In this document: positions 2,251-44,335 of the stretch, in pieces
How positions within the stretch are numbered: the stretch's first letter is position 1
How the letters are laid out: the number at the start of each line of letters is the position of its first letter
Assembly (NCBI GenBank): GCA_016715645.1
Contig: JADJZR010000008.1
Coordinates: forward strand, 48,241 to 112,240
Reading direction: 5' to 3'
DNA: 64,000 bases
Source: Elusimicrobiota bacterium
GTDB lineage: Bacteria; Elusimicrobiota; Elusimicrobia; FEN-1173
Notes under the pieces: model-generated
Seen by the model: only the letters and a program-made list of their open reading frames with translations
Database searches by the model: none
Told to the model about the DNA's origin: nothing
Made by a program: the position numbers and the translations under genes

Positions 2251-2612
2251 ATCGGGTTTCAAATTCAACACACCAATCCCCCTCCACCGCCCTGTTCGAA
2301 TCCCTGTCCGAATCGCGGATCTCTGTCCTTTATCTGGCCCGCCGGGCCAAAGAAACCAAGGACATGGCCCTGGCCAAAGAATTAACCGAAAAAGGTCAAT
2401 CGCTCAAAATTGAAATGGCCAGAATTCGCCGAACACTCACTGTCGAATGGACCAAAGAGGCCGCCGCCCTTCTGAAACGCTCAAAAACCGCCCAATCCGA
2501 ACTGGCCAAACATGTGGCGGACGCGGAAAAAAGCGCCCGGAAAACAAAGGCCCTCGCCCGGGCCCTAACCGCTGTGTCAAAGGTCCTTGCGCTCGCGAAA
2601 AAGGTTCTTTGA
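2247..2612 (+). CDS. Hypothetical small alpha-helical protein, paralog B of the duplicated pair
   Basis: About 50% amino-acid identity to ORF 1245..1718, with a near-identical ~70-nt 5' segment. Its stop overlaps the next start (TGATG). Confidence 0.5.
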   Translation: MNRVSNSTHQSPSTALFESLSESRISVLYLARRAKETKDMALAKELTEKGQSLKIEMARIRRTLTVEWTKEAAALLKRSKTAQSELAKHVADAEKSARKTKALARALTAVSKVLALAKKVL

Positions 2613-3838
2613 TGGAATCCACGGACTTTCTCATCGTCGGCGCCGGAATCGTGGGGCTGGCCGTAGCCAATGAGTTACGTCGACGCCACCCCAAAGCCAA
2701 CATCGTCGTTTTGGAAAAGGAAACGGAAGTGGGTTGCCACGCCAGTGGCCGAAACAGCGGGGTGTTGCACTCGGGTATTTACTATTCGCCGGGGACACTC
2801 AAGGCGAAATTTTGCGCGGAAGGCGCCCGCCGAATGTTGGCGTTCGCTAAAGAAAATGGTGTGGCCCATCGCGTGGCGGGGAAAGTGATTCTCGCTGTCG
2901 GACCGGAAGACCTCCCCGGACTGGAGCGGTTGGAACAAAACGCCAAAGCCAACGGGATTCGCGCCGTCCGTTTGTCCGCCCAAACACTCATGGAGATCGA
3001 ACCCCACGCTACGCCAGGAGAAGCGATCCATTGTTTGGACACCGCGGTGGTGGACGCCCCGGCCGTGGTGCAAGCGTTGGCCGAAAAAGTGGAATTAAGC
3101 GGAACTCGTTTTTTCTTTGGCGAAGAGGTGATCGAGGCAGAAGAAACCGCGGTAATAACGCGTTCTGGTCGAAAGTTGAAATTTGAAAAGATGATTAATT
3201 GTGCGGGCGCCCACGCGGATAAAGTGGCCAGGCTGTTCGGCCTGGCCAAGGATCATATTTTGGTTCCCTTCAAAGGGCTCTATTGGAAACTGCGTAATGG
3301 GGCCGACCATTGGGTTCGCGAAAGCATCTACCCTGTTCCGGACCTCAATTTTCCGTTTTTAGGCATTCACCTGACCCGCGGCGTGGGGGGCGACGTCTAC
3401 GTGGGCCCCACCGCCATTCCCGCTTTCGGAAGGGAAAATTATGGACTGCTGGAAGGAATCACCCCTGGCGAAAGCGCTCAAATAATGGGACGATTAACGA
3501 AAATGTATTTCCAAAAAGACCCCACGTTTCGACGACTGGTCAACCGTGAGATGGGTCATTACGTGAAAACCGGTTTTCTCAAAGCGGTTCAACGTTTGGT
3601 GCCCGCTCTTTCGGTGGAAGATCTGGTCCCATCGAACAAAGTCGGCATCCGCCCTCAACTGGTCCGCCGTACCGGTGAACTGGAAATGGATTTCCATATG
3701 GAACAGACCGACAATTCGTTGCATGTGTTGAACGCGATTTCACCGGCGTTCACCTGTTCCCTCGCCTTTGCCGAAAAAATCGTTGACGAGGTGGAGAGAC
3801 AAGGCGGTGAAGTCAAAGAAGAGGTCAAGGTCGCATGA
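2612..3838 (+). CDS. FAD-dependent oxidoreductase, L-2-hydroxyglutarate oxidase (LhgO/YgaF)-like
   Basis: ATG at 2612 (MESTDFLIVGAGIVGLAVANEL, an FAD-binding GxGxxG). CHASGRNSGVLHSGIYYSPGTLKAKFC closely matches the LhgO family. The upstream in-frame extension of ORF 2447 is probably not translated. Confidence 0.65.
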   Translation: MESTDFLIVGAGIVGLAVANELRRRHPKANIVVLEKETEVGCHASGRNSGVLHSGIYYSPGTLKAKFCAEGARRMLAFAKENGVAHRVAGKVILAVGPEDLPGLERLEQNAKANGIRAVRLSAQTLMEIEPHATPGEAIHCLDTAVVDAPAVVQALAEKVELSGTRFFFGEEVIEAEETAVITRSGRKLKFEKMINCAGAHADKVARLFGLAKDHILVPFKGLYWKLRNGADHWVRESIYPVPDLNFPFLGIHLTRGVGGDVYVGPTAIPAFGRENYGLLEGITPGESAQIMGRLTKMYFQKDPTFRRLVNREMGHYVKTGFLKAVQRLVPALSVEDLVPSNKVGIRPQLVRRTGELEMDFHMEQTDNSLHVLNAISPAFTCSLAFAEKIVDEVERQGGEVKEEVKVA

Positions 3839-4467
3839 GAAAAAATAAAAGGCCCGTTTGGAAAAACCCCACCGGTCGTCACGCCATGAGTTTCCTCGTG
3901 AACTTGGAAGAGATTGAAAAAGAGTTCCAGGTGACGAACAAACACAAAAAGCCGCTCTCGCTCGTGGACGGGTTTGCCCAAGCGATGGGCTTGATGGTGG
4001 ACGCCGCGCGCCGGAATAAGAAGCTCATTTTTGTGGGAAACGGGGGAAGCGCCGCGATTGCCAGTCACCAAGCCGTGGATTTTTGGAAGAACGGGGGAAT
4101 TAAAGCCCTGACGTTTAATGACGCAAGTCTTTTAACGTGCCTAGGGAATGACTGCGGTTATGAGAACGTTTTTTCCGAGCCGGTGCGCCGATTCGCCGAG
4201 TCGGGGGATGTGGTGTTGGCCATCAGCAGTTCGGGTCGTTCGCCCAATATTCTCAACGCCGTCACCGCAGCCCGTTCGGTGGGGAGCCGTGTTATTACTT
4301 TCTCAGGATTTACCGGTGACAATCCTCTTCGGAAAATGGGTGACGTGAACTTTTTCGTTCCCGTGCGGGCTTATGGGTTGGTGGAAGTCAGTCATCTCAT
4401 CCTGATCCATGCCATGTTGCGGGAAATCATCTACATCAATCCTCATGTGAAGAAATCGGGATATTGA
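3835..4467 (+). CDS. gmhA: SIS-domain sedoheptulose-7-phosphate isomerase (GmhA-like)
   Basis: Matches the GmhA/DiaA SIS family: KLIFVGNGGSAAIASHQAVDF, VVLAISSSGRSPNILNAV, ITFSGFTG. The ATGA overlaps the upstream stop; an alternative start is the Met at 3886. Confidence 0.65.
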   Translation: MRKNKRPVWKNPTGRHAMSFLVNLEEIEKEFQVTNKHKKPLSLVDGFAQAMGLMVDAARRNKKLIFVGNGGSAAIASHQAVDFWKNGGIKALTFNDASLLTCLGNDCGYENVFSEPVRRFAESGDVVLAISSSGRSPNILNAVTAARSVGSRVITFSGFTGDNPLRKMGDVNFFVPVRAYGLVEVSHLILIHAMLREIIYINPHVKKSGY

Positions 4468-5471
4468 GGAACAATGTGATAAAAAAAGCGGTCGTCACCG
4501 GCGGGTTGGGGTTTATCGGAAGCCACCTTGCGGAAGCTCTATTGGCTCGGGAGATTCAAACGACCATTGTTGACAACGCCTCCACCGGTCGACACGAAAA
4601 CATTCGCACGTTCGCGAACCACCCTCTCCTGACGGTCCTCCAGGCGGACGTGGCTTCTGACGATTTGGCGGGAGGGTTTGGCAACGCCGACGTTGTTTTT
4701 CACTTGGCCGGGTTGGCGGACATCGTTCCTTCGATCCAGCGTCCCATGGATTATTGCCGGACCAACATCACGGGAACGTTGCGTGTTTTGGAAGCGGCCC
4801 GGCAGGCCAAAGTCTCCCGTGTCGTCTATGCCGCCTCCTCGTCCTGCTATGGCCTCCCCGACATTTTTCCAACACCGGAGACCGCCCCCATCCGTCCCCA
4901 ATACCCCTACGCGCTCTCGAAGTGGATGGGCGAAGAGGCCGTGCATCATTGGGGGCGTGTCTACGGTCTAAAAACCACGTCGCTTCGACTTTTTAATGTG
5001 TACGGGCCCCGTTCCCGCACGACCGGAGCCTACGGCGCCGTTTTTGGTGTTTTTCTGGCCCAAAAGCTGGCAGAGAAACCGCTAACCATTGTTGGAGATG
5101 GAACCCAACAGCGAGATTTTATTTATGTCTCAGATGTGGTGGAGGCGTTCCTGGCCGCTGGAGAATCGACTTTGTCAAGGGAAGTTTTTAATGTGGCGGG
5201 GGGAAACCCGGTTGCGGTGAACACGCTGGCCGGTTTGGTGGGAGGTTCTCGGGTGGAAATTCCAAAACGTCCCGGAGAACCGGATGTGACGCACGGGGAC
5301 ATCACAAAAATTAAATCGGCCTTGGGCTGGGCGCCGCGCGTGTCGTTTGAGCAAGGGGTCGCCCGGGTCATGGCGCGTCTGGACGATTGGCGGAATGCCC
5401 CCGTGTGGACCCCCGCGTCGATAGCGGAAGCCACGGCGGATTGGTTTGCCCATTTGGGCAAGGGGAAATAA
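4464..5471 (+). CDS. NAD-dependent sugar epimerase/dehydratase (extended SDR)
   Basis: VVTGGLGFIGSHL Rossmann motif, YxxxK (YPYALSK), typical WcaG-like length. Confidence 0.75.
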   Translation: MRNNVIKKAVVTGGLGFIGSHLAEALLAREIQTTIVDNASTGRHENIRTFANHPLLTVLQADVASDDLAGGFGNADVVFHLAGLADIVPSIQRPMDYCRTNITGTLRVLEAARQAKVSRVVYAASSSCYGLPDIFPTPETAPIRPQYPYALSKWMGEEAVHHWGRVYGLKTTSLRLFNVYGPRSRTTGAYGAVFGVFLAQKLAEKPLTIVGDGTQQRDFIYVSDVVEAFLAAGESTLSREVFNVAGGNPVAVNTLAGLVGGSRVEIPKRPGEPDVTHGDITKIKSALGWAPRVSFEQGVARVMARLDDWRNAPVWTPASIAEATADWFAHLGKGK

Positions 5472-6994
5472 TGGACTCAAAAAAAATTATGGAGTTGGAT
5501 GCGTTGGCACTACAAGTTACGGACTGGAAACGGCAGGGCAAACGGGTGGTGCAGTGCCACGGCGTCTTTGACCTGTTGCACGTGGGGCATATTCGCCATT
5601 TAAATGAGGCCAAACGGTTCGGAGACTATTTAATCGTCACGCTGACCCCCGACCATCTCGTGAACAAAGGCCCCCATCGCCCTGCGTTTCCCCAACATCT
5701 CCGGGCAGAGGTGATGGCGGCTCTGGACGTGGTGGACGGTGTTGCGATCAATCGATGGCCCTCTGCGGTGGAATCCATCGGCCTTCTCAAACCAAACGTC
5801 TACGCCAAGGGGCCGGACTATCGAAAGGCGTCGGACGACGTCACGGGCGGAATTCTCCGGGAAGAAGAGGCCGTCCGCGCGGTGGGGGGCGAAATCCGTT
5901 TTACCGATGACGTGACGTTTAGTTCATCCAGCCTGGTCAATCTCCATTTAGATCTGCTTCCCCCGGAAGTCAAATCGTTCCTGGATGGTTTCCGTAAGAA
6001 ATACACAAAGGACGATATTTTCCGCTACATCGAAAGTCTTAAGGGTTTGCGGGTTGCGGTGGTGGGAGAAACCATTTTGGATGAGTATGTTTATTGTGAA
6101 GCCATGGGGAAATCTTCCAAAGAACCCACTTTGGCTGTACTTCGCCGGTCCCAGGAATTATTCGCGGGGGGGGCTTTGGCCATTGCCAACCATCTGGCGC
6201 AATTCTGCTCGGAAGTAGAGGTGATCACCTATTTGGGCGAACGGGATTCACAGGAAGAATTTGTCCGGAAAAGCCTGAATCCGCGCGTGCGGCTGACGGC
6301 CGTGAAAAAGCCGGGAGCCCCCACCATTGTCAAACGTCGCTACGTGGAGTCGTATCTTTTGTCAAAAATGTTTGAAGTCTATGATATGGACGACGAGGCC
6401 CTGACGGGCATTGCGGAAAATTCACTTTGCCAAGCAATGGAGTCTTCTTTTTCTAAAGTCGATGCGGTTCTTGTGGCCGATTATGGGCACGGTCTCATGA
6501 CGTCTAAGGCGGTGGCCCTGGCCTGTCAAAAGGCGCCTTTTCTGACGGTCAATACCCAGATCAACGCCGCCAACATCGGATTCCATGCCATTTCCCGCTA
6601 TCCCAAAGCGAACCATGTGTGTATCCAGGAATCTGAGCTGCGGTTGGAATACCGAAGTCGCCGGGGCCCCGTCAATGCCATGGTAACCGATCTGGAACGT
6701 CGTCTTGCGTGCGAGCGGATAACGGTGACCCGCGGCAGAGCGGGTATTCTGGTCCATGACCAGAAAGGTGATTTCCATCAATCTCCTGCCTTTGCCGTTA
6801 AGGTTTTGGATCGGATTGGGGCGGGAGACGCGGTTCTTGCGCTCACGTCCCTTTGCGCCGTGGCTGGCGTTCCGCCGGACGTTTCGGCGTTCCTGGGCAA
6901 TCTGGCGGGCGCCCAAGCGGTCACGATCATCGGCAACAAGACTTCCATTGATAAGGCGCTCCTTTTAAAAGCCGCCGAAGCCATGCTGAAATAA
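5471..6994 (+). CDS. hldE: Bifunctional heptose-7-phosphate kinase / heptose-1-phosphate nucleotidyltransferase (HldE/RfaE-like) with reversed domain order
   Basis: The N-terminus is a cytidylyltransferase-fold domain (VVQCHGVFDLLHVGHIRHLNEAKRFGDYLIVTLTPD, the RfaE domain-II signature). The C-terminus is a PfkB/ribokinase-like kinase (DRIGAGDAVLA). ATG at 5471 directly follows the upstream stop. Confidence 0.7.
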   Translation: MDSKKIMELDALALQVTDWKRQGKRVVQCHGVFDLLHVGHIRHLNEAKRFGDYLIVTLTPDHLVNKGPHRPAFPQHLRAEVMAALDVVDGVAINRWPSAVESIGLLKPNVYAKGPDYRKASDDVTGGILREEEAVRAVGGEIRFTDDVTFSSSSLVNLHLDLLPPEVKSFLDGFRKKYTKDDIFRYIESLKGLRVAVVGETILDEYVYCEAMGKSSKEPTLAVLRRSQELFAGGALAIANHLAQFCSEVEVITYLGERDSQEEFVRKSLNPRVRLTAVKKPGAPTIVKRRYVESYLLSKMFEVYDMDDEALTGIAENSLCQAMESSFSKVDAVLVADYGHGLMTSKAVALACQKAPFLTVNTQINAANIGFHAISRYPKANHVCIQESELRLEYRSRRGPVNAMVTDLERRLACERITVTRGRAGILVHDQKGDFHQSPAFAVKVLDRIGAGDAVLALTSLCAVAGVPPDVSAFLGNLAGAQAVTIIGNKTSIDKALLLKAAEAMLK

Positions 6995-7080
6995 GGAGCC
7001 CCTTTTTTTCCTTCCCCTCTTGGGGGAAGGTGCCCCAAAGGGTCGGATGAGGGGAGGAATTTTTTCTTTAAGGAGTTAAA

Positions 7081-8082
7081 ATGGTTCGATTCAAAAAAAT
7101 TTTGGTCACTGGTGGAGCTGGCTATGTTGGTTCGGCCCTTGTGCCGGCCCTGCTGAAAGTCGGCTACACCGTGCGCGCGCTGGACTTGTATTTGTACGGC
7201 GACCCCTTAAAAGACGTCGCAACGAACCCCCAACTCGAACAGGTGAAAGGCGACCTCCGGGACCAGGTTGTTTTAGACAAAGCCGTCCAGGGCTGTGACG
7301 CGGTGATTCACTTAGCGTGTGTTTCCAACGATCCCAGCTTTGAATTGGATCCCGCTCTCGGAAAGTCCATCAACTACGACGCTTTCTTCGGACTCATGAA
7401 GGCCGTGCGAAAAGCCAGGGTTCAGCGGTTGATCTATGCGTCCAGTTCCAGCGTGTATGGTTTGCGGGAAGAACCGGATGTGCGCGAGGAAACCCCCTGC
7501 ACTCCTTTGACAGATTACTCGAAGTACAAGCTGATGTGCGAAGACGCGTTGCGCGCCGACGGCCTGGGCGGAGCGGAATACGTCATTGTTCGACCAGCCA
7601 CGGTCTGCGGCTACGCCCCGCGCATGCGGTTGGACCTTTCCGTCAATATCCTCACCATCCATGCCCTGGTCAAAAAACAGATCACTGTGTTCGGTGGCAG
7701 TCAACTTCGCCCCAACATCAATATTCTGGACATGGTGGACGTCTACAAGCTTTTGTTAGAGGCCCCAAAAGAAAAAATTCAGGGGGACGTTTTTAACGCG
7801 GGGTATGAGAACCTTTCCCTCTCTCGTATCGCTGAGATGGTCAAAAACCAACTCCAAGACCCGACCATCACCATTAAAGTGGAACCCACCAACGATCTGC
7901 GTTCCTATCACGTGAACTCCGACAAAATCGCCCGAATCCTGGGTTTCCGCGCGCGCCATACTGTCGAACAGGCGATTGAAAGCATTCACAAGGCTTTTCA
8001 GGAAGGAAAATTCCAAGACCCTCTGACGAACCCTCTTTATTACAACATCAAAACCATGCAACAGGCGAAGCTCGGGGGCTAA
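7081..8082 (+). CDS. NAD-dependent sugar epimerase/dehydratase (extended SDR)
   Basis: ILVTGGAGYVGSAL, YASSSSVYG, YxxxK (YSKYK). Confidence 0.75.
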   Translation: MVRFKKILVTGGAGYVGSALVPALLKVGYTVRALDLYLYGDPLKDVATNPQLEQVKGDLRDQVVLDKAVQGCDAVIHLACVSNDPSFELDPALGKSINYDAFFGLMKAVRKARVQRLIYASSSSVYGLREEPDVREETPCTPLTDYSKYKLMCEDALRADGLGGAEYVIVRPATVCGYAPRMRLDLSVNILTIHALVKKQITVFGGSQLRPNINILDMVDVYKLLLEAPKEKIQGDVFNAGYENLSLSRIAEMVKNQLQDPTITIKVEPTNDLRSYHVNSDKIARILGFRARHTVEQAIESIHKAFQEGKFQDPLTNPLYYNIKTMQQAKLGG

Positions 8083-8954
8083 TGGCATCTCCGGTTGACA
8101 TCGAAGCGTTGGATCTTAAGGCCTTGGCCCGGACCATCCGAGGCGACGTCATCGATATGTCCCACCGGGCAGAAACAGCCCATCTGGGGGGATCCCTTTC
8201 GGTGGTGGATATTTTGGTGGCGGCGTACTGGGGAGTTCTTTCTTTAGACCCGAAGGACCCCCTCGCCCCCGATCGGGATCTATTTATCTTTAGCAAGGGC
8301 CACGCCATCAGCGCTTTCTATTCTACGCTGGCCCACCGGGGTTTTTTCCCGATCCCCCTGCTGGAAACGTTTGCCGTTTCCGGTGGATCTCTTCCCGAAC
8401 ACCCCAGTCCTTCGTGTGTCCCCGGCCTAGAGTTCGCCACAGGGTCCCTCGGCCATGGGTTACCCGTTGGCCTTGGGATGGCCTGGGCCGCCCGGCGGCA
8501 GGGTCGTCTTTCGCGCGTGTTCGTCGTGATTAGCGACGGAGAAGCCAACGAGGGGTCCGTCTGGGAAGCCGCCCTTCTGGCGCCCGCCCAAAAGCTCGGC
8601 AACCTGGCGGTCATTGTCGATTACAACAAATGGCAAGCCACGGGCCGTAGCCACGAAGTGATGGCCCTTAATCCCCTAAAAGAAAAATGGCAATCCTTCG
8701 GCTGGAACGCGGTGGAGGTGGACGGACACGACATTCCCGCTCTGGTCGACGCTCTGAACAAACATCCCTATCATTCCTCCCAACCGTTGGCGATCGTGGC
8801 CCACACGGTGAAGGGGAAAGGTGTTTCTTTCATGGAAGATGACAACAACTGGCATTACCGCATTCCCACTGCCGATGAGGTCCGCCGGGACCGAGCGTTT
8901 TGTCCAGGAGGCCGAAAATTTGTGGAACTCGGGCCCTGGGCCAACCGGGGGTGA
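8082..8954 (+). CDS. Transketolase, N-terminal (ThDP/pyrophosphate-binding) subunit
   Basis: GHLGGSLSVVDILVAAYW, ISDGEANEGSVWEA and the GDG-like ThDP motif. Split form of about 290 aa. Confidence 0.8.
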   Translation: MASPVDIEALDLKALARTIRGDVIDMSHRAETAHLGGSLSVVDILVAAYWGVLSLDPKDPLAPDRDLFIFSKGHAISAFYSTLAHRGFFPIPLLETFAVSGGSLPEHPSPSCVPGLEFATGSLGHGLPVGLGMAWAARRQGRLSRVFVVISDGEANEGSVWEAALLAPAQKLGNLAVIVDYNKWQATGRSHEVMALNPLKEKWQSFGWNAVEVDGHDIPALVDALNKHPYHSSQPLAIVAHTVKGKGVSFMEDDNNWHYRIPTADEVRRDRAFCPGGRKFVELGPWANRG

Positions 8955-9880
8955 GAAATGCTTTCGCAAGTGAAATAACGGCGCTCGCTAAAAAGGACGA
9001 GCGGGTCGTCCTGGTGTCCGGCGATATCGGGAACCGGTTGTTTGACGAGTTCAAAATCGCAGCGCCCGGCCGGTTCGTCAACGCCGGCGCCGCCGAAGGA
9101 AACATGATCGGTTTGGCGGCCGGGATGGCTTTAAGCGGACTGCGCCCGGTCGTCTACACCATAAACTCATTTCTTACAACGCGCTGCTATGAGCAGATTC
9201 GCGTCGATCTATGCTACCACAACCTACCCGTGGTCCTAGCGGGAGTGGGCGCTGGACTGAGTTACGCGTCCTTGGGGGCCACCCACCATTCTCTGGAAGA
9301 CGTGGCGGCTCTTCGGGTCCTCCCCCGCATGGCGGTGGTTTGTCCAGGCGATCCGTTGGAGGTCCGTCTGGCGTTGCGCGCGGCTCTCCAACAGGAGGGC
9401 CCCGTCTTCATTCGAATGGGCAAAAAAGGGGAACCTCCGGTCCATGTCGAGCCACCCCCTTTTGCCATCGGCCGTGCCATTGTCGTCAAACCGGGAAACA
9501 GAATCTGCTTGCTTGGCAACGGGCACATCCTTTCAATGGTCATGAAAGCGGCCGACATTTTAGAGCAAAAGGGCGTCTCAACCCAAGTTGTCAGTTTTCA
9601 CACCGTAAAACCATTGGACAAAGAATTCCTTCAAGACGCATTCAAGCGGTTTCAGTTGGTGGCGACGGTGGAGGATCACGGCGTCCTGGGGGGCTTGGGG
9701 GGAAGCGTGGCGGAATGGTTGGCGGATCACCCTTCCCCGGCTCGCCTATGCCGGATCGGTACCCCCGACGAATTTTTGATGGAGACCATCGACAACGAAT
9801 CCGCTCGGCATCGGTGTGGCCTCACCCCCGACTCTGTGGCGGCCAAGGCGCTCGCGGCCCTGGCCCCCGAAACGGTTTAA
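8951..9880 (+). CDS. Transketolase, C-terminal (pyrimidine-binding) subunit
   Basis: GTG at 8951 overlaps the upstream stop (GTGA). VRNAFASEITALAKKDERVVLVSGDIG... is a typical split-transketolase C-subunit. Confidence 0.75.
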   Translation: MRNAFASEITALAKKDERVVLVSGDIGNRLFDEFKIAAPGRFVNAGAAEGNMIGLAAGMALSGLRPVVYTINSFLTTRCYEQIRVDLCYHNLPVVLAGVGAGLSYASLGATHHSLEDVAALRVLPRMAVVCPGDPLEVRLALRAALQQEGPVFIRMGKKGEPPVHVEPPPFAIGRAIVVKPGNRICLLGNGHILSMVMKAADILEQKGVSTQVVSFHTVKPLDKEFLQDAFKRFQLVATVEDHGVLGGLGGSVAEWLADHPSPARLCRIGTPDEFLMETIDNESARHRCGLTPDSVAAKALAALAPETV

Positions 9881-10486
9881 ATGCGCGTGGGAATAGATTT
9901 CGACAACACGCTGGTTTGTTGCGCACCCCTCTTTCATCGGGTTGCCCTGGAGCGGGGTCTTGTACCTCCCCATCTGCCCGCCACAAAGGACGCGGTGCGA
10001 AATTACTTGATGGATCTAGGGCGCGAAACAGATTGGACGGAACTACAGGGAACCGTCTACGGTCCACGTCTTTGTGAAGCGCTTCCTTTCCCAGGGGCAA
10101 GGGAGTTTGTGGTTCTGTGTCGCCAAAAAAATATCCCTGTGGGTGTGGTCAGCCATAAGACGCGCCACGCCTTGTGTGGTCCGGCCCACAACCTTCACGA
10201 TGCGGGGTATCGTTGGCTGGAGAGCGCTGGTTTTTTTGACCAGGATGTTATATCACGGGACCAGGTTTTTTTCGAGCCATCGCGAGCGGCCAAATTGAAC
10301 CGAATCCGCGCTTTGGGCTGTTCGCATTTTATTGACGATTTGAGAGAGGTCTTTTCTGAGCCACGCTTTCCCGTTGAAGTAAAAAAGTGGCTATTCGATC
10401 CGGATTCTTCCCAAAAGGGATCGAAGGACACCCGTTCTTTTTCGACCTGGGTCCAGCTTTCTGGGGCTCTCGAAGAAGACTTTTAG
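9881..10486 (+). CDS. HAD-superfamily phosphatase (possible heptose-bisphosphate phosphatase analogue)
   Basis: N-terminal GIDFDNTLV (DxDxT/V HAD motif I). Its start abuts the transketolase stop. Confidence 0.55.
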   Translation: MRVGIDFDNTLVCCAPLFHRVALERGLVPPHLPATKDAVRNYLMDLGRETDWTELQGTVYGPRLCEALPFPGAREFVVLCRQKNIPVGVVSHKTRHALCGPAHNLHDAGYRWLESAGFFDQDVISRDQVFFEPSRAAKLNRIRALGCSHFIDDLREVFSEPRFPVEVKKWLFDPDSSQKGSKDTRSFSTWVQLSGALEEDF

Positions 10487-10487
10487 A

Positions 10488-11534
10488 ATGACGCCCGGTG
10501 AAGTCGCTTCAGCCGTCTCCCGGGCCACGGGCGAGCGTCCCAAAGAGGTCGTTCTTTTAAAAGGCGTCGGGAACAATGTGGTGGCAAAGGTGAACATGGC
10601 CGCTGGTACTCGGGTCGCAAAAATCTATTTTCGTCACCCGGCCGACCCCCGGGATCGTTTGGGAACCGAATATGACATGTTGACGTTTTTGTGGGAGGCC
10701 GGGGTTCGCCGGGTTCCCCAGCCCTATGGGATGTTTCGCGACGACTCTTTGGGGCTTTATGAGTTCATTGATGGAGTTCCGTTGGCTCCCGGCGGCGTCA
10801 CATGGAAAGAGGTAGAACAGCTCATATCGTTTTTGGGGGAAATGTATAATTGCAAGGGTCGTCCAGGAGCGCAGAGACTGCCGACCGCTTCGGAGTATGC
10901 CCCTTCGTTGGCGGATTACCGGGAAAACGTTTCCCGACGATTTCAGCGTTTGCGACAAGGGATCGACCCAAAAATGGAGCCGACAGCAGCCGATTTCGTG
11001 AACGGCCCGCTCTTCCGGGCCCATGAAGACCTGGCCCGTTTTCTGGCGAATTGGTCGAAAGTGGGGATGAATCTTGACGACGTGTTGGATCCAGCCCAGC
11101 GAACGTTAAGTCCGGCTGATCACGGGTTTCAGAACACGCTGGCGCGAAACGGACAGTTGGTGTTTCTGGATTTTGAATACGCGGGGTGGGACGATCCAGC
11201 CCAGGTGATTGCCAACGCCTGCCTGCACCCGGCGGTGCCCATGCCGACGGCTTTTGTTCCTCGATTTGTCGAGGACCTGTCGGAACGGCTGAGGGGAGGG
11301 CTCGCGTTTCGAAGACGTTTACGGTGTCTTTACCCCCTGCTGGCGTTCAAATGGAGTCTCATCATGCTGAACGAGTTTCTTCCCGTAGACCGTGACCGAC
11401 GTGCGTTTACGGGGGCGGATGTGGAGTTGAAAAAAGGAATCCAGTTAAAAAAGTCAATTCTTCAACTGGATAAGGTCAAAGAAGCTCTGGCCGACGATTT
11501 TTTTCTCAAGGAGATGGTTCATGGAACAAATTGA
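10488..11534 (+). CDS. Aminoglycoside-phosphotransferase-fold (APH/ChoK-like) kinase, likely a sugar kinase
   Basis: HGFQNTLARNGQLVFLDFEYAGWDD matches the Brenner HxDhxxxN...D motif of the APH family. Confidence 0.6.
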   Translation: MTPGEVASAVSRATGERPKEVVLLKGVGNNVVAKVNMAAGTRVAKIYFRHPADPRDRLGTEYDMLTFLWEAGVRRVPQPYGMFRDDSLGLYEFIDGVPLAPGGVTWKEVEQLISFLGEMYNCKGRPGAQRLPTASEYAPSLADYRENVSRRFQRLRQGIDPKMEPTAADFVNGPLFRAHEDLARFLANWSKVGMNLDDVLDPAQRTLSPADHGFQNTLARNGQLVFLDFEYAGWDDPAQVIANACLHPAVPMPTAFVPRFVEDLSERLRGGLAFRRRLRCLYPLLAFKWSLIMLNEFLPVDRDRRAFTGADVELKKGIQLKKSILQLDKVKEALADDFFLKEMVHGTN

Positions 11535-12183
11535 TTTTATTCAAGCGCTCAATAAATCGACCAAACGCGACTACGTGGGCCGAGTGACGGAGTTCCCGAA
11601 GCCAGAGGCGGCGAAAATCGCCAAGCAATACGGAAAAGACTATTGGGATGGGGACAGAAAGTTCGGTTATGGGGGATACAAATACGATGGTCGATGGCTC
11701 CCGCTGGCCCAAACCATCGCCAAACACTATGGGATAAAAGCAGGCGACAAAATTCTTGATGTGGGGTGTGGCAAAGGATTTTTGCTTTACGAGTTCACCC
11801 GAGCGGTTCCTGGCGTGCAGGTCGCGGGCATCGATATTTCCACTTACGCCATTGAAAACGCCAAGGAGGAGGTTAAGCCGTTCCTGAAAGTGGGGAACGC
11901 CGTCAAACTCCCCTTCGCAGACAAAACCTTCGATTTTGTCTATTCCAACACGACATTCCACAATCTCCATAACTACGAACTTTTTGATGCGGTAAAGGAA
12001 GTCGAGCGCGTAGGGAAAAAAAACAAATACCTTTGCGTCGAATCCTACCGGAACGACGAAGAAAAAGCCAACTTACTGTATTGGCAACTCACCTGCGCCA
12101 GTTTCTATACCCCCCACGAGTGGGCGTGGTTCTATAAACTGTGCGGATACACAGGGGATTATGGTTTCATATACTTTGAGTAA
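11521..12183 (+). CDS. Class I SAM-dependent methyltransferase
   Basis: ILDVGCGKGFLLYEF (motif I), followed by a Methyltransf_11-like core. Confidence 0.65.
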   Translation: MEQIDFIQALNKSTKRDYVGRVTEFPKPEAAKIAKQYGKDYWDGDRKFGYGGYKYDGRWLPLAQTIAKHYGIKAGDKILDVGCGKGFLLYEFTRAVPGVQVAGIDISTYAIENAKEEVKPFLKVGNAVKLPFADKTFDFVYSNTTFHNLHNYELFDAVKEVERVGKKNKYLCVESYRNDEEKANLLYWQLTCASFYTPHEWAWFYKLCGYTGDYGFIYFE

Positions 12184-12186
12184 CCT

Positions 12187-12261
12187 ATGAAATTCAACGT
12201 CGCCGTCCTTGTCGAGAGCAGGGAGCCTAATGTCATCAAAGATTTTGAGAAACCACGATGA
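12187..12261 (+). pseudogene. 24-codon remnant of an MDR alcohol-dehydrogenase N-terminus (MKFNVAVLVESREPNVIKDFEKPR*)
   Basis: Close match to the N-terminus of the intact dehydrogenase at 13843 (MKFKAAVLVESRNPLVIEELE). It is terminated by TGA, which overlaps the ATG of the next gene. Confidence 0.5.
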
Positions 12262-13712
12262 AGGTCAAACGCGCTCTAAAACGAAATGTTTCCTCCCCTC
12301 CGTCGCTTTTAGAAAATCTGCAGGCTTGGGTGCGTTTAGGGGAGTCTGAAATTTTGGAGTTTAAACGCACGACAAATGAACGGAGAGAGGCTGTTCGCTC
12401 GCTTTGCGCAATGATCAACCATCGAGGGGGACGTGTGTTGTTCGGAGTTTCCTCTGCCGGAGAGATCCTCGGGCAGCAGGTCAGTGATCGCACCATTGAA
12501 GAATTGGCGCAAGAAATCAAGGAGATCGACCCCCCTGTTTTTCCATCCATCGAACGCATTGTCGTTTCCCGGGAGCGGGAAGCAATCGCCGTAACCGTTT
12601 TACCCGGGCCGTCAGGTCCCTACACCTACAAAGGGCGCGCCTATCGGCGCGTGGGGAACGCGAGTCTCGCGATGTCGAAGGATGAATGCAATCGTATTTT
12701 ACTCGAACGATTGCATGGCCAGAGCCGCTGGGAAAATCAGTTGTTGGAAGAATGGTCCGTCAAAGATTTGGACATTGGCGAAATCACGCGGACCATTGAC
12801 GAGTCCGTGCGCCGCGGTCGATCTGAGGATCCAGGCACGCGAGACCCCGAGATTATTCTTCGCGGGCTTGGCCTCATGAAAGGGAAGCGTCTTTTTCGAG
12901 CCGCCGCCGTTTTATTTGGCCGTCGCGACCTCCTCGCAGCGGAGTATCCCCAATGCCTCCTTCGGGTCGCTCGGTTTCGCGGGTCAGACAAGACAGTTTT
13001 CGTTGATAACCGTCAGTTTCAAGGCAACGTGTTTGACTTATTGTCCCATGCGGAGAGATTCCTGCGCGATAATTTGCCCGTCGCGGGGCGCGTGCTCCCA
13101 GGCCTTTTTGAACGAGTGGATGATCCTCTGTACCCTTCTCTTGCCTTGCGTGAATCTCTGGCCAACGCTTTTTGCCATCGGGATTACAGCATGGGGGGCG
13201 GCTCGGTTTCGCTCGCTGTTTATGACGACCGATTGGAGATCACGTCTTCAGGCCCTCTGCATTTTGGGCTCACAGAGGAAATGCTGTTCCTTCCACACGA
13301 ATCCCTTCCCTGGAATCCCCTGATCGCAAGGACCTTCTATCGGCGGGGCATCATTGAATCCTGGGGACGCGGCACTTTGAAAATGGCCGAGTTAATGCAC
13401 GCCGCCGGTCTTCCCCACCCGGAAATTGTTGAGGCCAGTGGATGCGTTATCGTTCGATTCCGACCGAAAGAGAGCCTCCCTCTTCATGCATCGGGGGACT
13501 TAAATGCGCAACAAAAAAATATAATCGCCCTCATCGTGGCCACCCCCATCGGGCTTTCGTTGCGTGACATTCGGAAAGGGATCCCATCCTCTCCGCCTGT
13601 GTGGAAACTGAAAAGGGAACTGGAGACGTTGAAAAATCTAGGCAAACTCGCGACGCGCGGGCGTGGCCTCGGCGCTCGCTGGCTCCTCCGAAAGGAGCCG
13701 AACGCCCCATGA
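12258..13712 (+). CDS. Schlafen/AlbA_2 + HATPase_c_4 + wHTH protein (COG2865), paralog of the gene at 1..1248
   Basis: ESEILEFKR (AlbA_2); ALRESLANAFCHRDYSMGGGSVSLAVYDDRLEITSSGPL (HATPase_c_4); C-terminal wHTH-like region. Confidence 0.7.
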   Translation: MKVKRALKRNVSSPPSLLENLQAWVRLGESEILEFKRTTNERREAVRSLCAMINHRGGRVLFGVSSAGEILGQQVSDRTIEELAQEIKEIDPPVFPSIERIVVSREREAIAVTVLPGPSGPYTYKGRAYRRVGNASLAMSKDECNRILLERLHGQSRWENQLLEEWSVKDLDIGEITRTIDESVRRGRSEDPGTRDPEIILRGLGLMKGKRLFRAAAVLFGRRDLLAAEYPQCLLRVARFRGSDKTVFVDNRQFQGNVFDLLSHAERFLRDNLPVAGRVLPGLFERVDDPLYPSLALRESLANAFCHRDYSMGGGSVSLAVYDDRLEITSSGPLHFGLTEEMLFLPHESLPWNPLIARTFYRRGIIESWGRGTLKMAELMHAAGLPHPEIVEASGCVIVRFRPKESLPLHASGDLNAQQKNIIALIVATPIGLSLRDIRKGIPSSPPVWKLKRELETLKNLGKLATRGRGLGARWLLRKEPNAP

Positions 13713-13715
13713 GCA

Positions 13716-13762
13716 CCAATGGCGCTCCAATGCGCTCCAATGGCGCTCCAATGCGCTCCAAT
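13716..13762 (+). repeat. Tandem repeat, roughly 21-nt unit (ggcgctccaatgcgctccaat) x2, with 10/11-nt sub-periodicity
   Basis: Read directly: ccaatggcgctccaatgcgctccaatggcgctccaatgcgctccaat, immediately 3' of the COG2865 paralog. Confidence 0.85.
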
Positions 13763-13842
13763 AACTTCAGGGGAGCACATCGGACGAAAGTTCCTGACCA
13801 CTTTCAATCCCTCGGTTTTAACTCCAATTATTTCATCCACCC

Positions 13843-14889
13843 ATGAAATTTAAAGCCGCCGTCCTCGTCGAAAGCCGCAACCCCCTCGTCATCGAGGAGC
13901 TCGAAGTCCCGGTCCTAAAATATGGCCAGGTCCTCGTGAAAATTATTTGCAGTGGCATCTGCGGAGCCCAAATCAACGAAATCGATGCCGTGAAAGGTCC
14001 GGACAAATTTCTCCCCCACCTGTTGGGCCATGAAGCGACAGCGGAAGTTGTGGACTGCGGCGAAGGCGTGACCACGGTAAAACCGGGCCAGCGGGTGGTC
14101 TGTCACTGGCGCAAAGGCGCGGGCCTCCAATCCCCCACACCCCAATACAAATCAAAGTTGGGCCTTGTGAATGCCGGTTGGGTGACCACGTTTAGCGAAT
14201 ACTCGGTGGTTTCTGAAAATAGACTAACACCAGTTTCCAGGGATTTGGACCCAGAAATTGGCGCTCTCATGGGGTGCGCCATCACCACAGCCATGGGCGT
14301 CATCAACAACGATGCCCGTTTGGGCATTGGAGAATCGATTGTTGTATTTGGAGCAGGCGGCGTAGGCCTGAGCATAATTCAATTTGCCGCCCTGGTGGGG
14401 GGCTATCCCATCGTTGCGATTGACCTGCATGAAAATAAACTCGAATTGGCAAAGAGTCTCGGCGCAACCCACACGTTCAAAGCCGGGGCCATTGACCTGG
14501 ACGAGGAAATCCGCAATATTGTCGGCACCGCTGGGGCAGACGTGGCCATCGAAAACACTGGGAACGCCGACGTTATTGAGATGGCCTACGCCCTGACAAA
14601 TGGGAAAGGAGGCCGCACGATTTTGGTGGGCGTCCCCCCTGTGACGGCCCGCCGCCCCAGCATCTACACCCTCCCTCTCCATTTCGACAAGGTACTCAAA
14701 GGAAGCGAAGGCGGTCATTGTCGACCCGAATCCGACATCCCGAAACTCCTGAAGCTTTGCCAAGTGGGTCGAGTTCGTTTCAATGGGCTGGTGGGGGTGC
14801 GATATCCGTTGGGTCGAGTCAATGACGCCTTGTTAGATCTTCGTTCTGGGCGTATTCCGGGCCGGTGCCTTCTTATGATGGGGCAGTGA
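13843..14889 (+). CDS. Zinc-dependent medium-chain dehydrogenase/reductase (alcohol/sugar dehydrogenase)
   Basis: GICGAQINE... and GHEATAEVVDCGEGV (Zn ligands); FGAGGVGLS Rossmann motif. Confidence 0.75.
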   Translation: MKFKAAVLVESRNPLVIEELEVPVLKYGQVLVKIICSGICGAQINEIDAVKGPDKFLPHLLGHEATAEVVDCGEGVTTVKPGQRVVCHWRKGAGLQSPTPQYKSKLGLVNAGWVTTFSEYSVVSENRLTPVSRDLDPEIGALMGCAITTAMGVINNDARLGIGESIVVFGAGGVGLSIIQFAALVGGYPIVAIDLHENKLELAKSLGATHTFKAGAIDLDEEIRNIVGTAGADVAIENTGNADVIEMAYALTNGKGGRTILVGVPPVTARRPSIYTLPLHFDKVLKGSEGGHCRPESDIPKLLKLCQVGRVRFNGLVGVRYPLGRVNDALLDLRSGRIPGRCLLMMGQ

Positions 14890-14924
14890 CGTGATTCAAT
14901 TTTTTTAAAAAGCGAATATTACCA

Positions 14925-16154
14925 ATGACCTCTTCCATTTGTCGGAGTTGTGGAACCGATGGGGTGACAGCGTTAATCGATTTTGGACCCCAACCACTCT
15001 GCAATAGGTTCCTCCCTTCTTCTCGCGGAGAGGAATACACTCATCTTCTGAAATTGGGATTTTGCCGACGATGCGGAGTGATTGAGCAAATGGTTCCAGC
15101 GCCGAATGATCAAATCAGACCCCGTTACGATTGGATAACCTACAGCGAACCGGAAGGCCACTTAGATGAATTGGTGGGAGAACTCACTCAACTTGCTGAC
15201 CTCGGTCCAGACTCCATGATCTGTGGGATAACTTTCAAGGACGATTCCACCCTAGCGAGATTTCGAAACAAAGGGTTCTCTCGCACCCGGCGGTTGGACC
15301 TTAAGGAAGACTTAGAGATCACTGACCCGGGGGCCGGTTTAGAGACCATCCAAGATCGATTGACTGTTGAGCGGGCGCGGAAATGGGCCCAACGATGGGG
15401 GAAGTGTCATCTCCTCGTGGTGCGGCATATTCTGGAGCACGCCCATGACCTTCCCCATTTCATGGATGCGCTGAGGGAGCTCGTTTCTCCGAAGGGCTAT
15501 GTCGTGTTTGAAATTCCCGATTGTGCGCGGGCCCTGGAAAAATTCGATTTCAGTTCCATTTGGGAGGAACATGTGTTTTATTTTACAGAGCCAACATATA
15601 AGCGAGCGTTGGCCCACCAGGGATTTTTCGTGGAGCAATTTAAAGTGATCCCCTATTCTTTGGAAAACTCTCTTGTGGCTATCGGTCAGTTCCATGATAG
15701 AAAATCCGTTACGAGTGACGATGTTCTTCCGTACGAAATGGAACAGGCGATGGCATTCGCCGGGGGTTTTGAAATAAAAAAGACCGAATGGCGGAAATTT
15801 CTCGCAGAGGCTCGGCGTCAAACACGCCCGATCGCGATGTTTGGCGCTGGGCACTCAAGTTGCGCTTTCATTAACCTTTTGGGTTTAAGCGATTTAATCG
15901 ATTTTTTTGTTGATGACAATCCCCACAAAAAAGGCCTTCTTATGCCCGGAAGTCGCTTGCCCATTTCTCCCTCCTCCTCGTTGATAGAAAAGGCTGTCAA
16001 ATTCTGTTTACTAAGCGTTAGCCCGGAAAATGAACCAAAGGTCATGGAAAAGAATCAATCGTATTTGAAGGCGGGGGGTCGATTCGTCTCAATTTTTCCG
16101 GACAGTCCCTATTCGTTTCAGAGGACGAAAACCCATGCGAACACGGCCATTTAA
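14925..16154 (+). CDS. NDP-hexose C-methyltransferase (TylC3 family: N-terminal Zn-ribbon + SAM methyltransferase + C-MT C-domain)
   Basis: CRSCGTDGVTALIDFGPQPLCNRF Zn-finger N-terminus, about 410 aa, central class-I methyltransferase core. Confidence 0.6.
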   Translation: MTSSICRSCGTDGVTALIDFGPQPLCNRFLPSSRGEEYTHLLKLGFCRRCGVIEQMVPAPNDQIRPRYDWITYSEPEGHLDELVGELTQLADLGPDSMICGITFKDDSTLARFRNKGFSRTRRLDLKEDLEITDPGAGLETIQDRLTVERARKWAQRWGKCHLLVVRHILEHAHDLPHFMDALRELVSPKGYVVFEIPDCARALEKFDFSSIWEEHVFYFTEPTYKRALAHQGFFVEQFKVIPYSLENSLVAIGQFHDRKSVTSDDVLPYEMEQAMAFAGGFEIKKTEWRKFLAEARRQTRPIAMFGAGHSSCAFINLLGLSDLIDFFVDDNPHKKGLLMPGSRLPISPSSSLIEKAVKFCLLSVSPENEPKVMEKNQSYLKAGGRFVSIFPDSPYSFQRTKTHANTAI

Positions 16155-16680
16155 TCAAGAAGTCTTGTATGCCGAGGACACGGTTGTGCGAGTCTCGACA
16201 GCGGATGTCCGGTCTTTGGCGAAACGGGCCCTGGGGGCTCCGCGCGGTCGAATTCGTTTGTGCGCCCATCCAAAAATAGAAGATCCTTTCCATGAAATGT
16301 TTATTGTCCATACGCGAAACGTTTATGTGCGTCCACACAAACATCTCGGGAAATCAGAATCTCTTCATGTGATTGCGGGAAAGGCTGATGTGGTCTTGTT
16401 CAGCGAATCTGGTTTGGTGGAGGACGTTTTTTCTCTTTCTCCCTATGGGGCTCGTTCAATCTTTTATTATCGAATTCCTGAAAATTTTTATCATGCGTTG
16501 ATCATTCGCTCCCATCGATTTGTTTTTCACGAGGCCACACCGGGACCGTTTGACCGTTCTAAAACGATTTTTGCGCCCTGGGCGCCGGAGCCGGGTAAAT
16601 CGCGCGATGTCTCCGATTGTTTGAAGTGGTTGAAAACCCGATCTGTTTGCCCCACCGGGTTGCGGGGTGGGGTTTTATGA
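16135..16680 (+). CDS. WbuC-family cupin-fold protein
   Basis: RIRLCAHPKIEDPFHEMFIVHTRNVYVRPHKH, typical of WbuC proteins found in O-antigen loci. Confidence 0.6.
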   Translation: MRTRPFNQEVLYAEDTVVRVSTADVRSLAKRALGAPRGRIRLCAHPKIEDPFHEMFIVHTRNVYVRPHKHLGKSESLHVIAGKADVVLFSESGLVEDVFSLSPYGARSIFYYRIPENFYHALIIRSHRFVFHEATPGPFDRSKTIFAPWAPEPGKSRDVSDCLKWLKTRSVCPTGLRGGVL

Positions 16681-17606
16681 AATATATAGTCTTTGGAGCT
16701 TCTGGTTTTCTTGGGCGACATTTTGTTCAACAAGCCCGTCAACACGGGCACGAAGTCCTTGGTACATATCACCTCCAAAAACGAGAAGGCCTGCTTCCCT
16801 TCAACTTAAAAAATAACCGGCTGAGCGAAATCGTGCCGGCGGATTTTTTTTCTTCTGGCCCTGTCTGTGCCGTTCTTTGTTCGTTCATTAGTCAGATCGA
16901 CGATTGTTTTCGCTGGAAAGACGAAGCGCGATTGTCCAATGTGGACGGGATGATCCGCTTGATCAATGATCTTTGCGAAAAAGACGCCTTTCCGGTCTTC
17001 CTCTCCACTTGTGCGGTGTTTGATGGAACTGCCGGTTACTATTCTGAGGAATCCCCGACAGGGCCCATCAACGAATACGGGCGGCAAAAACTCGCGGTCG
17101 AAGAATTTCTACGCGCACACGGGATGGCTTCCTCTATTCTTCGCTGCGACAAATTGATTGGCGACGATGCGGGAGAGTCCCATATGCTGTCCGAATGGTA
17201 TCGGTGGGCCAATGAGGGGCGACCTCTGGTCTGTATACAAGGGCAGATGATTTCGCCAACGCTGGTTACGGACGTGGCCCGGGCCATTGTAGTGGTTTGT
17301 GAAAAACGGCTAACGGGCGTTTTTCACGTCGCAAATCCACAACACTGCCTCAGAGAAGAGCTGGCCTTGGAATTTTTGAAAGCGCTCAATTTGCGGGGAA
17401 CAGTGGTGGGGAAAACTCAACAAGAATTGGGATTCGCGGATTTACGCCCGTTAAAGGCCCATCTGAACCCCTTAAAATTTATCAAGGCCACGGGTTTCCA
17501 ATTTACCCCCGTTCAGCGGATTTTTGAGGTATTCGCTCAATCAGCCAAGTGCCCGCCTAAACAAGTGAGTGGGCACGGCACCGTGAACGTTCTGCCGGGA
17601 AAATGA
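16677..17606 (+). CDS. dTDP-4-dehydrorhamnose reductase (RmlD)-like SDR
   Basis: ATG at 16677 (MKYIVFGASGFLGRHF). RmlD-like length and motifs. Confidence 0.55.
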   Translation: MKYIVFGASGFLGRHFVQQARQHGHEVLGTYHLQKREGLLPFNLKNNRLSEIVPADFFSSGPVCAVLCSFISQIDDCFRWKDEARLSNVDGMIRLINDLCEKDAFPVFLSTCAVFDGTAGYYSEESPTGPINEYGRQKLAVEEFLRAHGMASSILRCDKLIGDDAGESHMLSEWYRWANEGRPLVCIQGQMISPTLVTDVARAIVVVCEKRLTGVFHVANPQHCLREELALEFLKALNLRGTVVGKTQQELGFADLRPLKAHLNPLKFIKATGFQFTPVQRIFEVFAQSAKCPPKQVSGHGTVNVLPGK

Positions 17607-30283: not shown

Positions 30284-30284
30284 A

Positions 30285-31073: not shown

Positions 31074-31093
31074 ATTTTTATACTGGACACCTT

Positions 31094-36874: not shown

Positions 36875-36878
<4 letters not shown>
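35628..36878 (+). CDS. Hypothetical protein (possible glycosyltransferase of the O-antigen-locus TIGR04372-like type); family not confidently recognised
   Basis: One N-terminal hydrophobic segment, 416 aa, no canonical motifs identified. Confidence 0.25.
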
Positions 36879-39952
<3,074 letters not shown>

Positions 39953-39956
<4 letters not shown>

Positions 39957-42026: not shown

Positions 42027-42030
42027 ATCA

Positions 42031-44314: not shown

Positions 44315-44335
44315 CTTTAATTTTGGAGGATCATT

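Follow-up and report, generated by a model that had tools for sequence, protein, structure and literature searches.

The locus analysed here raises the question of why a split transketolase is encoded beside a phosphatase and a kinase in the middle of a heptose-type gene module. The sequence studied is a 64,000 nt stretch of an Elusimicrobiota metagenome-assembled genome (MAG), hereafter the window, and all positions are window positions unless a related locus is named. The preliminary description of this DNA read four plus-strand genes at 8082-11534 as two transketolase subunits, a HAD phosphatase and an APH-fold kinase, and domain matches and structure models confirmed that reading. TK-N (8082-8954; PF00456, 116 bits; NF004559, 243 bits) is a transketolase-like alpha subunit with the pyrophosphate-binding (PP) domain, and TK-C (8951-9880; PF02779, 115 bits; PF02780, 73 bits) is a beta subunit with the pyrimidine-binding (Pyr) and C-terminal domains. 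They are followed by a C1-cap HAD phosphatase (9881-10486) and by a small-molecule kinase of the APH/choline-kinase fold (10488-11534). On the same strand lie MT1, a class I S-adenosylmethionine (SAM) methyltransferase (11521-12183; PF08241, 68 bits), and Zn-ADH, a zinc-dependent medium-chain dehydrogenase (13843-14889; PF00107 and PF08240; best NCBIfam match class III alcohol dehydrogenase-like, under the cut-off). The best explanation of the sequence comparisons is that the transketolase pair, HAD, APH, MT1 and Zn-ADH form a dedicated sugar-tailoring cassette, which in the Elusimicrobiota genome studied here is joined to GmhA-like and HldE-like genes for a heptose activated by a nucleotide. 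From the residue and neighbourhood patterns described below, we consider dedicated tailoring the likely function, not supply of an ordinary sugar phosphate.

The closest solved chains to the two subunits belong to ChTK, the active split transketolase of Carboxydothermus hydrogenoformans (TK-N against the N subunit of 6YAK, 232 bits; TK-C against 6YAJ, 183 bits), which is the only transketolase encoded in that genome (PMC7661550). ChTK and the window enzyme share their architecture, with two adjacent genes that separate the PP domain from the Pyr and C-terminal domains, and the same residues for thiamine diphosphate (ThDP), Mg and the donor. TK-C starts at GTG 8951, overlapping the TK-N stop codon, in agreement with its relatives and with the NCBI entry MBK8870682.1 (309 aa). 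The C-terminal tail of TK-N (8895-8954) is approximately 14 residues longer than the tails of its relatives and unlike them; the gene probably carries a small indel close to its 3' terminus, with the catalytic part unaffected.

Sixty cassette-linked transketolase pairs were aligned with E. coli TktA and with 6YAK/6YAJ. The ThDP/Mg site was preserved throughout (D155, G156, E160, D183 and N185 in 60/60 pairs, E411 in every aligned sequence). In the window, TK-N keeps H26, H66, H100, G114, D155, E160, N185 and H261 and has lost R91, while TK-C keeps R358, E411 and H473. All five donor histidines (H26, H66, H100, H261 and H473) are present in the window enzyme and are invariant in the family, except that H100 is replaced by Q in 9/60 pairs; G114 and R358 are likewise conserved across the pairs. 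H66, H100, G114 and H473 are donor-binding residues, and the position of H100 is occupied by Phe in DXP synthase (PMC7661550). Since H100 and the other donor-binding residues are kept, the donor is likely to be a hydroxylated ketol and not pyruvate.

The acceptor side was different. The canonical ligands of phospho-sugar acceptors are R358, S385, H461, R520, D469 and R91, and R358 alone is retained. Across the 60 pairs, S385 is replaced by R or G, H461 by G, R520 by K and R91, which forms a salt bridge with D469, by C, A, G or N. The E468-D469 pair reads S-L, G-N or P-L, so that D469 becomes L or N, and the window TK-C itself carries S385R, H461G, R520K and S-L in place of E468-D469. By contrast, ChTK keeps H461, E468-D469 and R520; the window enzyme, encoded in a glycan operon, carries G, S-L and K there. 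S385 is a phosphate ligand, and changes at S385, D469 and R520 shift transketolase off phospho-sugar acceptors (PMC5073344). With these acceptor and phosphate ligands replaced, a simple supply of sedoheptulose-7-phosphate, one of two roles proposed in the preliminary description, is unlikely; the other, in which an unusual sugar receives a two-carbon ketol unit, agrees better with the residues found. The predicted alpha/beta enzyme has all the residues needed for ThDP chemistry and for binding a ketol (hydroxymethyl-ketone) donor, and on the alignment its distal substrate channel has been rebuilt.

The same substitutions distinguish two transketolase pairs on plasmid pDCAR1 of Solidesulfovibrio carbinolicus, which serves as an internal control. 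Among the transketolase pairs of this plasmid, only the one adjoining HAD-APH-MT1 has G461/Y466/L469/K520. A second pair, elsewhere in that glycan island (locus L089, 4863-6631), has fabG, a methyltransferase and an ATP-grasp gene as neighbours; it carries H461/D469/R520, and its C2 or acyl function may be a different one.

The grouping of the transketolase pair, HAD and APH as a unit inside a heptose-type module, also proposed previously, was borne out by comparative genomics. APH homologues formed 743 clusters, and at least 591 stretches encoding the cassette were located in collections with a single genome per species. Carriers included Planctomycetota (among them a Kuenenia MAG), Verrucomicrobiota, Microcoleus cyanobacteria, Acidobacteriota, Dehalococcoidia, Nitrospirota, Armatimonadota, Elusimicrobia, Thermodesulfobacteriota and others. 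Homologues of the window proteins were scored in the best 80 of the at least 591 loci, which were species-representative, and open reading frames (ORFs) of the loci were clustered with overlap filtering; presence percentages were taken from the 45 loci in which the APH gene has 7 kb or more of sequence on each side. Near APH, HAD was found in 98% of these loci, TK-C in 84%, TK-N in 82% and MT1 in 82%, followed by the HldE-like gene (71%), the epimerase- or oxidoreductase-type gene SDR2 (71%) and Zn-ADH (62%). A C-methyltransferase, a cupin and the epimerase-type gene SDR1, all encoded in the window, were infrequent (18%, 22% and 16% respectively). Thus, the transketolase pair occurs near APH more often than the heptose-activation genes do (84% vs. 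71%). HAD lies immediately 5' of APH in 74/80 loci, and MT1 accompanies the transketolase pair in 35/38. MT1 is the most conserved member of the cassette, with homologues 60-72% identical across phyla; in the PDB sequence search it matched generic methyltransferases only. Between phyla, SDR2 homologues share 50-61% identity, and they adjoin the cassette and the HldE-like gene.

Two main gene orders were observed. The transketolase pair was upstream of HAD-APH in 22 loci (TK-C approximately 59% identical to the window protein) and downstream of it in 15 (approximately 39% identical), and Zn-ADH sits between TK-C and HAD in many loci. Gene fusions were found at two points of the cassette. Among the 120 best APH homologue clusters, 28 had a protein of 549-609 aa, the size expected of a HAD~APH fusion, and the three that were read were all such fusions, with a DFDGT motif at the N-terminus. 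The 658 aa protein P0246 is a natural fusion of TK-C (56% identical in that part) with Zn-ADH (41% identical), of the type usually encoded between TK-C and HAD. The two kinds of fusion argue for two functional couples, phosphatase with kinase and transketolase with dehydrogenase. The first of these couples is obligate and in some cases is a single fused protein.

The HAD protein (MBK8870683.1, 100% identity, on a 180,350-bp Elusimicrobiota MAG contig at NCBI) belongs to the HAD superfamily by its four motifs (I, DFDNT; II, SHKT; III, K138; IV, DD) and by the HAD phosphatases that the fold search returned. Residues D6, D8, T10, S91, K138, D152 and D153 are invariant, and the model (pLDDT 94) has an inserted helical C1 cap. 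Pfam matches were weak (24 bits), NCBIfam models gave no match and the PDB sequence search was uninformative. The nearest folds, at low identity, were deoxyribonucleotidase-like and phosphoglycolate phosphatases, which give no clue to the substrate; HDHD4, which we take to be the human N-acetylneuraminate-9-phosphate phosphatase, came at rank 34 among the fold matches. An assignment of the window HAD as GmhB (C0 cap, Cys-rich loop, HAD-IIIA) was rejected, given the absence of an NCBIfam match and the inserted helical cap. In Microcoleus loci, a separate GmhB-type HAD (NF006506, 155 bits in L017) adjoins the HldE-like gene, so the C1-cap HAD is not the GmhB step there.

The kinase (MBK8870684.1, on the same contig) has the APH/choline-kinase fold, as indicated by a PF01636 score of 35.3 bits against a gathering cut-off of 23.2, a catalytic Lys, a DxxxxN loop and a Mg-binding Asp. 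Residues K45, D211, N216 and D228 are invariant, as are five arginines. The neighbours of the model (pLDDT 93) are antibiotic, choline, hexosamine and methylthioribose kinases, at fold level only (11-18% identity); no NCBIfam match, resistance models included, and no informative PDB sequence match were obtained.

The cassette lies in a single plus-strand operon-like array of genes at 2609-19408, all members of which are in that orientation. The array opens with an FAD oxidase that resembles L-2-hydroxyglutarate oxidase in domain searches (2609-3838). It continues with a GmhA-like SIS isomerase (3835-4467; PF13580, 52 bits), for which the phosphoheptose isomerase NCBIfam models scored highest, at 93-99 bits and under their cut-offs. 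SDR1 (4464-5471; PF01370, 196 bits) is an extended SDR of epimerase type with the ASSSCYG and YxxxK motifs and without the TDE dehydratase motif; GalE, LegB and TviC models scored 137-148 bits, all under cut-off. The HldE-like protein (5468-6994) is a nucleotidyltransferase-PfkB fusion (PF01467 and PF00294) in which the domain order is reversed, nucleotidyltransferase then PfkB; its ORF opens at TTG 5387, and ATG 5468 was taken as the start. Its top NCBIfam matches, by a wide margin, are rfaE_dom_I and rfaE_dom_II (125 and 99 bits against cut-offs of 345 and 181). The APH kinase had been thought to stand in for a GHMP or PfkB kinase, but this does not hold: a PfkB domain is present 3.5 kb upstream in the HldE-like protein, and APH is an additional kinase. 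SDR2 (7081-8082; PF01370, 140 bits) is an extended SDR of epimerase or oxidoreductase type with the SSSSVYG and YSKYK motifs. The transketolase pair does lie between SDR2 and HAD/APH, as had been noted, but the naming of SDR2 as a heptose epimerase was not upheld, its best matches being HpnA-like (103 bits) and GalE (94 bits), both under cut-off. No GmhB-type gene was found in the window.

Between MT1 and Zn-ADH, an AlbA_2 (Schlafen-like)/HATPase_c_4 gene (12258-13712) looks inserted into the operon, because it is absent from L001 and L002, two close relatives that are otherwise fully syntenic with the window. Beyond Zn-ADH, Pfam and NCBIfam matches identified the C-methyltransferase (14925-16154), a WbuC-family cupin (16135-16680) and an RmlD-like reductase (16617-17606). 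The array ends with a fused exporter of the ABC family, with transmembrane and nucleotide-binding domains in one protein similar to HepA, MsbA and PglK (17603-19408; PF00664 and PF00005; HepA-family model 428 bits, under cut-off); it is syntenic in L001 and L002 and is likely the export or flipping step.

Two variations were seen in related loci. In Microcoleus, Zn-ADH is replaced by a 2-oxoglutarate-Fe(II) oxygenase (TIGR04324) and a LIC12192-family protein (TIGR04323) (L017, 8042-9308; also L018, L019, L022, L026, L038 and L049). NCBIfam labels both families as 'sporadic carbohydrate cluster' proteins, with names that hint at a Leptospira counterpart. A protein of approximately 320-340 aa, with only faint deoxyhypusine-synthase-like Pfam traces, recurs between the HldE-like and SIS genes (L054, L071, L072, L075, L083 and L088; L090, 21510-22475).

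In the mechanism that we propose, the transketolase-like enzyme would attach a two-carbon glycolaldehyde (ketol) unit to a non-canonical sugar intermediate or remove one from it. The intermediate would be phosphorylated, probably a heptose-derived aldose or ketose, and the carbon beside its reacting centre would not bear a plain hydroxyl. APH would put a phosphate handle on the intermediate and HAD would take one off, Zn-ADH would make or reduce the carbonyl used by the transketolase, and MT1 would O-methylate the product. For the phosphate steps, the kanosamine route, with a phosphatase acting before a kinase, is one parallel, and sialic acid synthesis, with the kinase first, is another. The outcome would be a methylated sugar, either extended, branched or trimmed in its chain, that enters the glycan of the surrounding island. 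By analogy with known pathways, three versions can be envisaged: extension after release of the sugar, following sialic acid and 3-deoxy-D-manno-octulosonate (Kdo) logic; build-up before activation; or a kanosamine-like relay ending in cleavage. On the sequence patterns, we give the general model of a phosphate handle plus C2 transfer a little less than an even chance. In a narrower form, the ThDP enzyme would add C2 to a heptose-derived intermediate, with APH and HAD handling phosphate, giving a higher-carbon (e.g. C9) or C2-branched O-methylated surface-glycan sugar in many uncultured phyla by a widespread and unrecognised route; this form is put forward tentatively, as less likely than not.

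Several observations weigh against the proposed model. R358 is retained and position 520 remains basic (K520), so that a phosphorylated substrate is still likely, and a subtly altered yet ordinary sugar-phosphate specificity may also account for the substitutions. G461 was found in 136 of the 150 nearest TK-C cluster representatives (clusters at 50% identity) and D469 in 4 of them, H473 and E411 being essentially invariant in the same set. In total, 1,994 TK-C-like representatives were found at E <= 1e-30, and the clade that lacks H461 and D469 is annotated plainly as transketolase; as a cassette-specific signature the loss of these two residues was rejected, as it marks a much larger clade. 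A SIS homologue lies within 10 kb of APH in just 33% of the 45 loci. HAD-APH is also found without a transketolase, and its role therefore cannot depend on that enzyme. The partners in such loci are DegT aminotransferases (L003, L005 and L086) or a module of a 4,6-dehydratase-like SDR, a C-methyltransferase and a cupin (L025, L027, L063, L073 and L078), each of which acts on or beside a sugar carbonyl.

Other explanations account for parts of the same evidence. If the split enzyme were an ordinary transketolase topping up sedoheptulose-7-phosphate for a GmhA/HldE pathway, its place beside the GmhA-like and HldE-like genes would be natural, as would its intact catalytic core and an active canonical enzyme as its nearest solved structure. 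However, the replacement of S385, H461, D469, R520 and R91 in 60/60 cassette-linked pairs, the tighter linkage of the pair to HAD-APH-MT1 than to the heptose genes, the canonical residues kept by the second S. carbinolicus pair and the presence of the cassette in Microcoleus, which should carry a canonical transketolase for the Calvin cycle, make this very improbable. At the other end of the cassette, the APH protein might be an antibiotic-resistance kinase lying in the cluster by chance, as its Pfam family (PF01636) and the corramycin, spectinomycin and macrolide kinases among its top fold matches could suggest. Such a role is unlikely because no NCBIfam resistance model is matched, identity to these solved kinases is 11-18%, and synteny or fusion with HAD is strictly conserved in sugar operons of many phyla; we regard a chance location as extremely improbable. 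HAD-APH might instead work separately from the transketolase, in WaaP-like phosphate decoration, in a Kennedy-type activation (kinase, methyltransferase and cytidylyltransferase) or as a protein kinase/phosphatase switch. The transketolase-less loci speak for this, together with the choline and ethanolamine kinases among the APH fold neighbours and the membership of the nucleotidyltransferase domain in PF01467, the family of TagD and CCT. Yet a transketolase is present in most loci (the 84% given above) and usually abuts the pair, the nucleotidyltransferase-PfkB protein scores far higher on HldE domains than on TagD, and a decorating kinase would have its work reversed by a phosphatase in the same fused protein. 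A separate role is accordingly quite unlikely.

Two further alternatives retain a sugar pathway and differ in the order of its steps. In the kanosamine-like relay with cleavage, a nucleotide-heptose would be modified by SDR2 (and in some loci also by DegT), released by HAD, re-phosphorylated at its far end by APH and converted by SIS to a ketose; the transketolase would then remove C1-C2 to leave a modified pentose phosphate, which Zn-ADH would reduce and MT1 methylate. The cassette kinase has the APH fold, unlike RifN, a glucokinase-type enzyme, and a heptose seems to be the sugar from which it starts. The same enzyme classes are used in the 3-amino-5-hydroxybenzoate (AHBA) pathway (PMC8788734, PMC4551226), in whose early kanosamine module RifL, RifK, the phosphatase RifM and the kinase RifN act together with a transketolase (PMC8788734). 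By analogy, the cassette would apply an oxidoreductase, an optional aminotransferase, a phosphatase, a kinase and a two-subunit transketolase to an intermediate derived from a nucleotide sugar; the window ORFs scanned contained no AHBA or aminoDAHP genes. HAD and APH would act consecutively, so their fusion would be natural; one common gene order runs HldE-like, SIS, SDR2, HAD, APH, transketolase, MT1 and Zn-ADH; DegT is directly 5' of HAD~APH in several loci; and a donor with a change at C4 would be in keeping with the missing D469. Against the relay, the pentose phosphate that it would yield has no consumer in the window or in the related loci, the kinase fold is not that of RifN, the nearest HAD folds are just weakly nucleotidase-like and leave nucleotide-sugar hydrolysis unsupported, and the route is circuitous. 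We consider it doubtful. In the lincomycin-like alternative the sugar would be built up before activation, with APH phosphorylating a free modified aldose, the transketolase extending it by two carbons to a ketose phosphate, and SIS, PfkB, HAD and the nucleotidyltransferase yielding a nucleotide-activated higher-carbon sugar, HAD being the equivalent of GmhB or LmbK. The lincomycin octose route follows the same logic, with a transaldolase instead of a transketolase. This scheme finds a role for every window enzyme, is in line with the lack of a GmhB-type HAD in the window, and agrees with the formation of octulose-8-phosphate from hexose phosphates by transketolases described in PMC4892735. 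It is set against Microcoleus loci that hold both a GmhB-type HAD and the C1-cap HAD, against the low frequency of the SIS gene, and against the retention of HAD-APH in variants lacking the transketolase, and is unlikely.

Comparison with known systems places the proposed tailoring cassette between several pathways. The nearest characterised enzymes are ChTK, with the same architecture and a different channel, and Rif15a/Rif15b, a two-subunit transketolase that takes a C2 keto fragment off common ketose phosphates and passes it to rifamycin S, a non-sugar acceptor (PMC6002545). Compared by description only, the Rif15 system likewise has an overlapping gene pair in a biosynthetic cluster and a C2 transfer to a non-canonical acceptor; it differs in that the acceptor is a naphthoquinone oxygen, the bond formed is C-O and the cluster is a polyketide one. 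AniP is another tailoring transketolase (PMC11387542). With the ADP-heptose pathway (GmhA, HldE, GmhB and HldD) the window shares a SIS protein and a kinase/nucleotidyltransferase fusion that match GmhA and HldE best, and some related loci add a GmhB-type HAD. In contrast to that pathway, the window proteins score under the curated cut-offs, the order of the HldE domains is reversed, the HAD is of C1-cap and not GmhB type, and the canonical route has no transketolase, APH, MT1 or Zn-ADH. In the sialic acid (N-acetylmannosamine kinase/NANS/NANP) and Kdo (KdsD/KdsA/KdsC) pathways, a distal phosphate is on the open-chain sugar before formation of the C-C bond and is taken off afterwards. The order proposed for the cassette, kinase, C-C bond formation and HAD phosphatase, would resemble this, except that the enzyme would be ThDP-dependent and add C2, whereas theirs is a phosphoenolpyruvate-dependent synthase that adds C3. 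Full-text searches on transketolase with heptose and glycan clusters found no paper on the cassette, and the literature searched held no description of a dedicated transketolase-family enzyme in bacterial glycan biosynthesis. Papers on the Kuenenia S-layer and on SugarBase mention plain heptose and NDP-heptose only.

The remainder of the window contains further genes of sugar metabolism and several mobile elements. Downstream of the cassette there are several aminotransferases, methyltransferases and WbqC genes and an acyl-activation set. Genes for a FabG-like SDR, a GNAT acetyltransferase and an acyl-activating enzyme of AMP-binding type are grouped at 29543-32644 (plus strand) and may provide a route for N-acyl decoration of an amino sugar. 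The plus-strand region 35628-47636 encodes a complete pseudaminic acid set (PseC, PseB, PseF-like, PseG, GNAT and NeuB) with a TIGR04372-family glycosyltransferase, and also an aldo/keto reductase, a class III aminotransferase, a metallo-beta-lactamase-fold protein and a second WbqC gene. On the S. carbinolicus plasmid the cassette is likewise paired with pse genes and a TIGR04372 glycosyltransferase. A general link between the cassette and nonulosonic acid genes was rejected, as PseB, NeuB and PseF homologues were nearby only in the window, in L068 and on that plasmid. The genes at 47640-49689 (plus strand) encode a radical SAM/SPASM protein and, after it, a TylF-type O-methyltransferase; in L061, in L088 and on the S. 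carbinolicus plasmid, too, the cassette has radical SAM genes at its flanks.

G+C content is 0.53-0.59 over 1-16 kb and falls to approximately 0.48 over 16-54 kb, and this drop near 16000 suggests a mosaic island. The island is bounded by transposases: an IS4-type transposase (DUF4372 and DDE_Tnp_1) lies on the minus strand at 19437-20636, just past the ABC exporter, and two plus-strand DDE transposase genes lie at the far end (55406-57924), where GC skew spikes to 0.33 at 56-58 kb. At the start of the window, the plus-strand genes at 73-1248 and 1729-2250 encode a second HATPase_c_4/HTH protein and an adjoining DUF1016/YhcG fragment, which is probably a truncated remnant (173 aa vs. 387 aa in L001). 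At the other end, adjacent DUF2397 and DUF2398 genes (61484-63710, plus strand) follow a minus-strand DUF4143 AAA ATPase and appear to belong to a conserved multi-gene system unrelated to the glycan island.

The tailoring cassette is real, conserved and uncharacterised. The TIGR04323 and TIGR04324 labels indicate that part of this neighbourhood has been noticed by curators, and it is still uncharacterised. Dedicated transketolase-family enzymes are known in a few antibiotic pathways, and the signature of G461, no D469 and K520 separates cassette-type enzymes from metabolic transketolases that carry an identical label in annotation. The carriers of the cassette include the anammox bacterium Kuenenia (Planctomycetota). 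If a new class of sugar is made, it would explain sugar masses of unknown identity in environmental glycoproteomics and would represent a new C-C bond-forming step in nucleotide-sugar chemistry.

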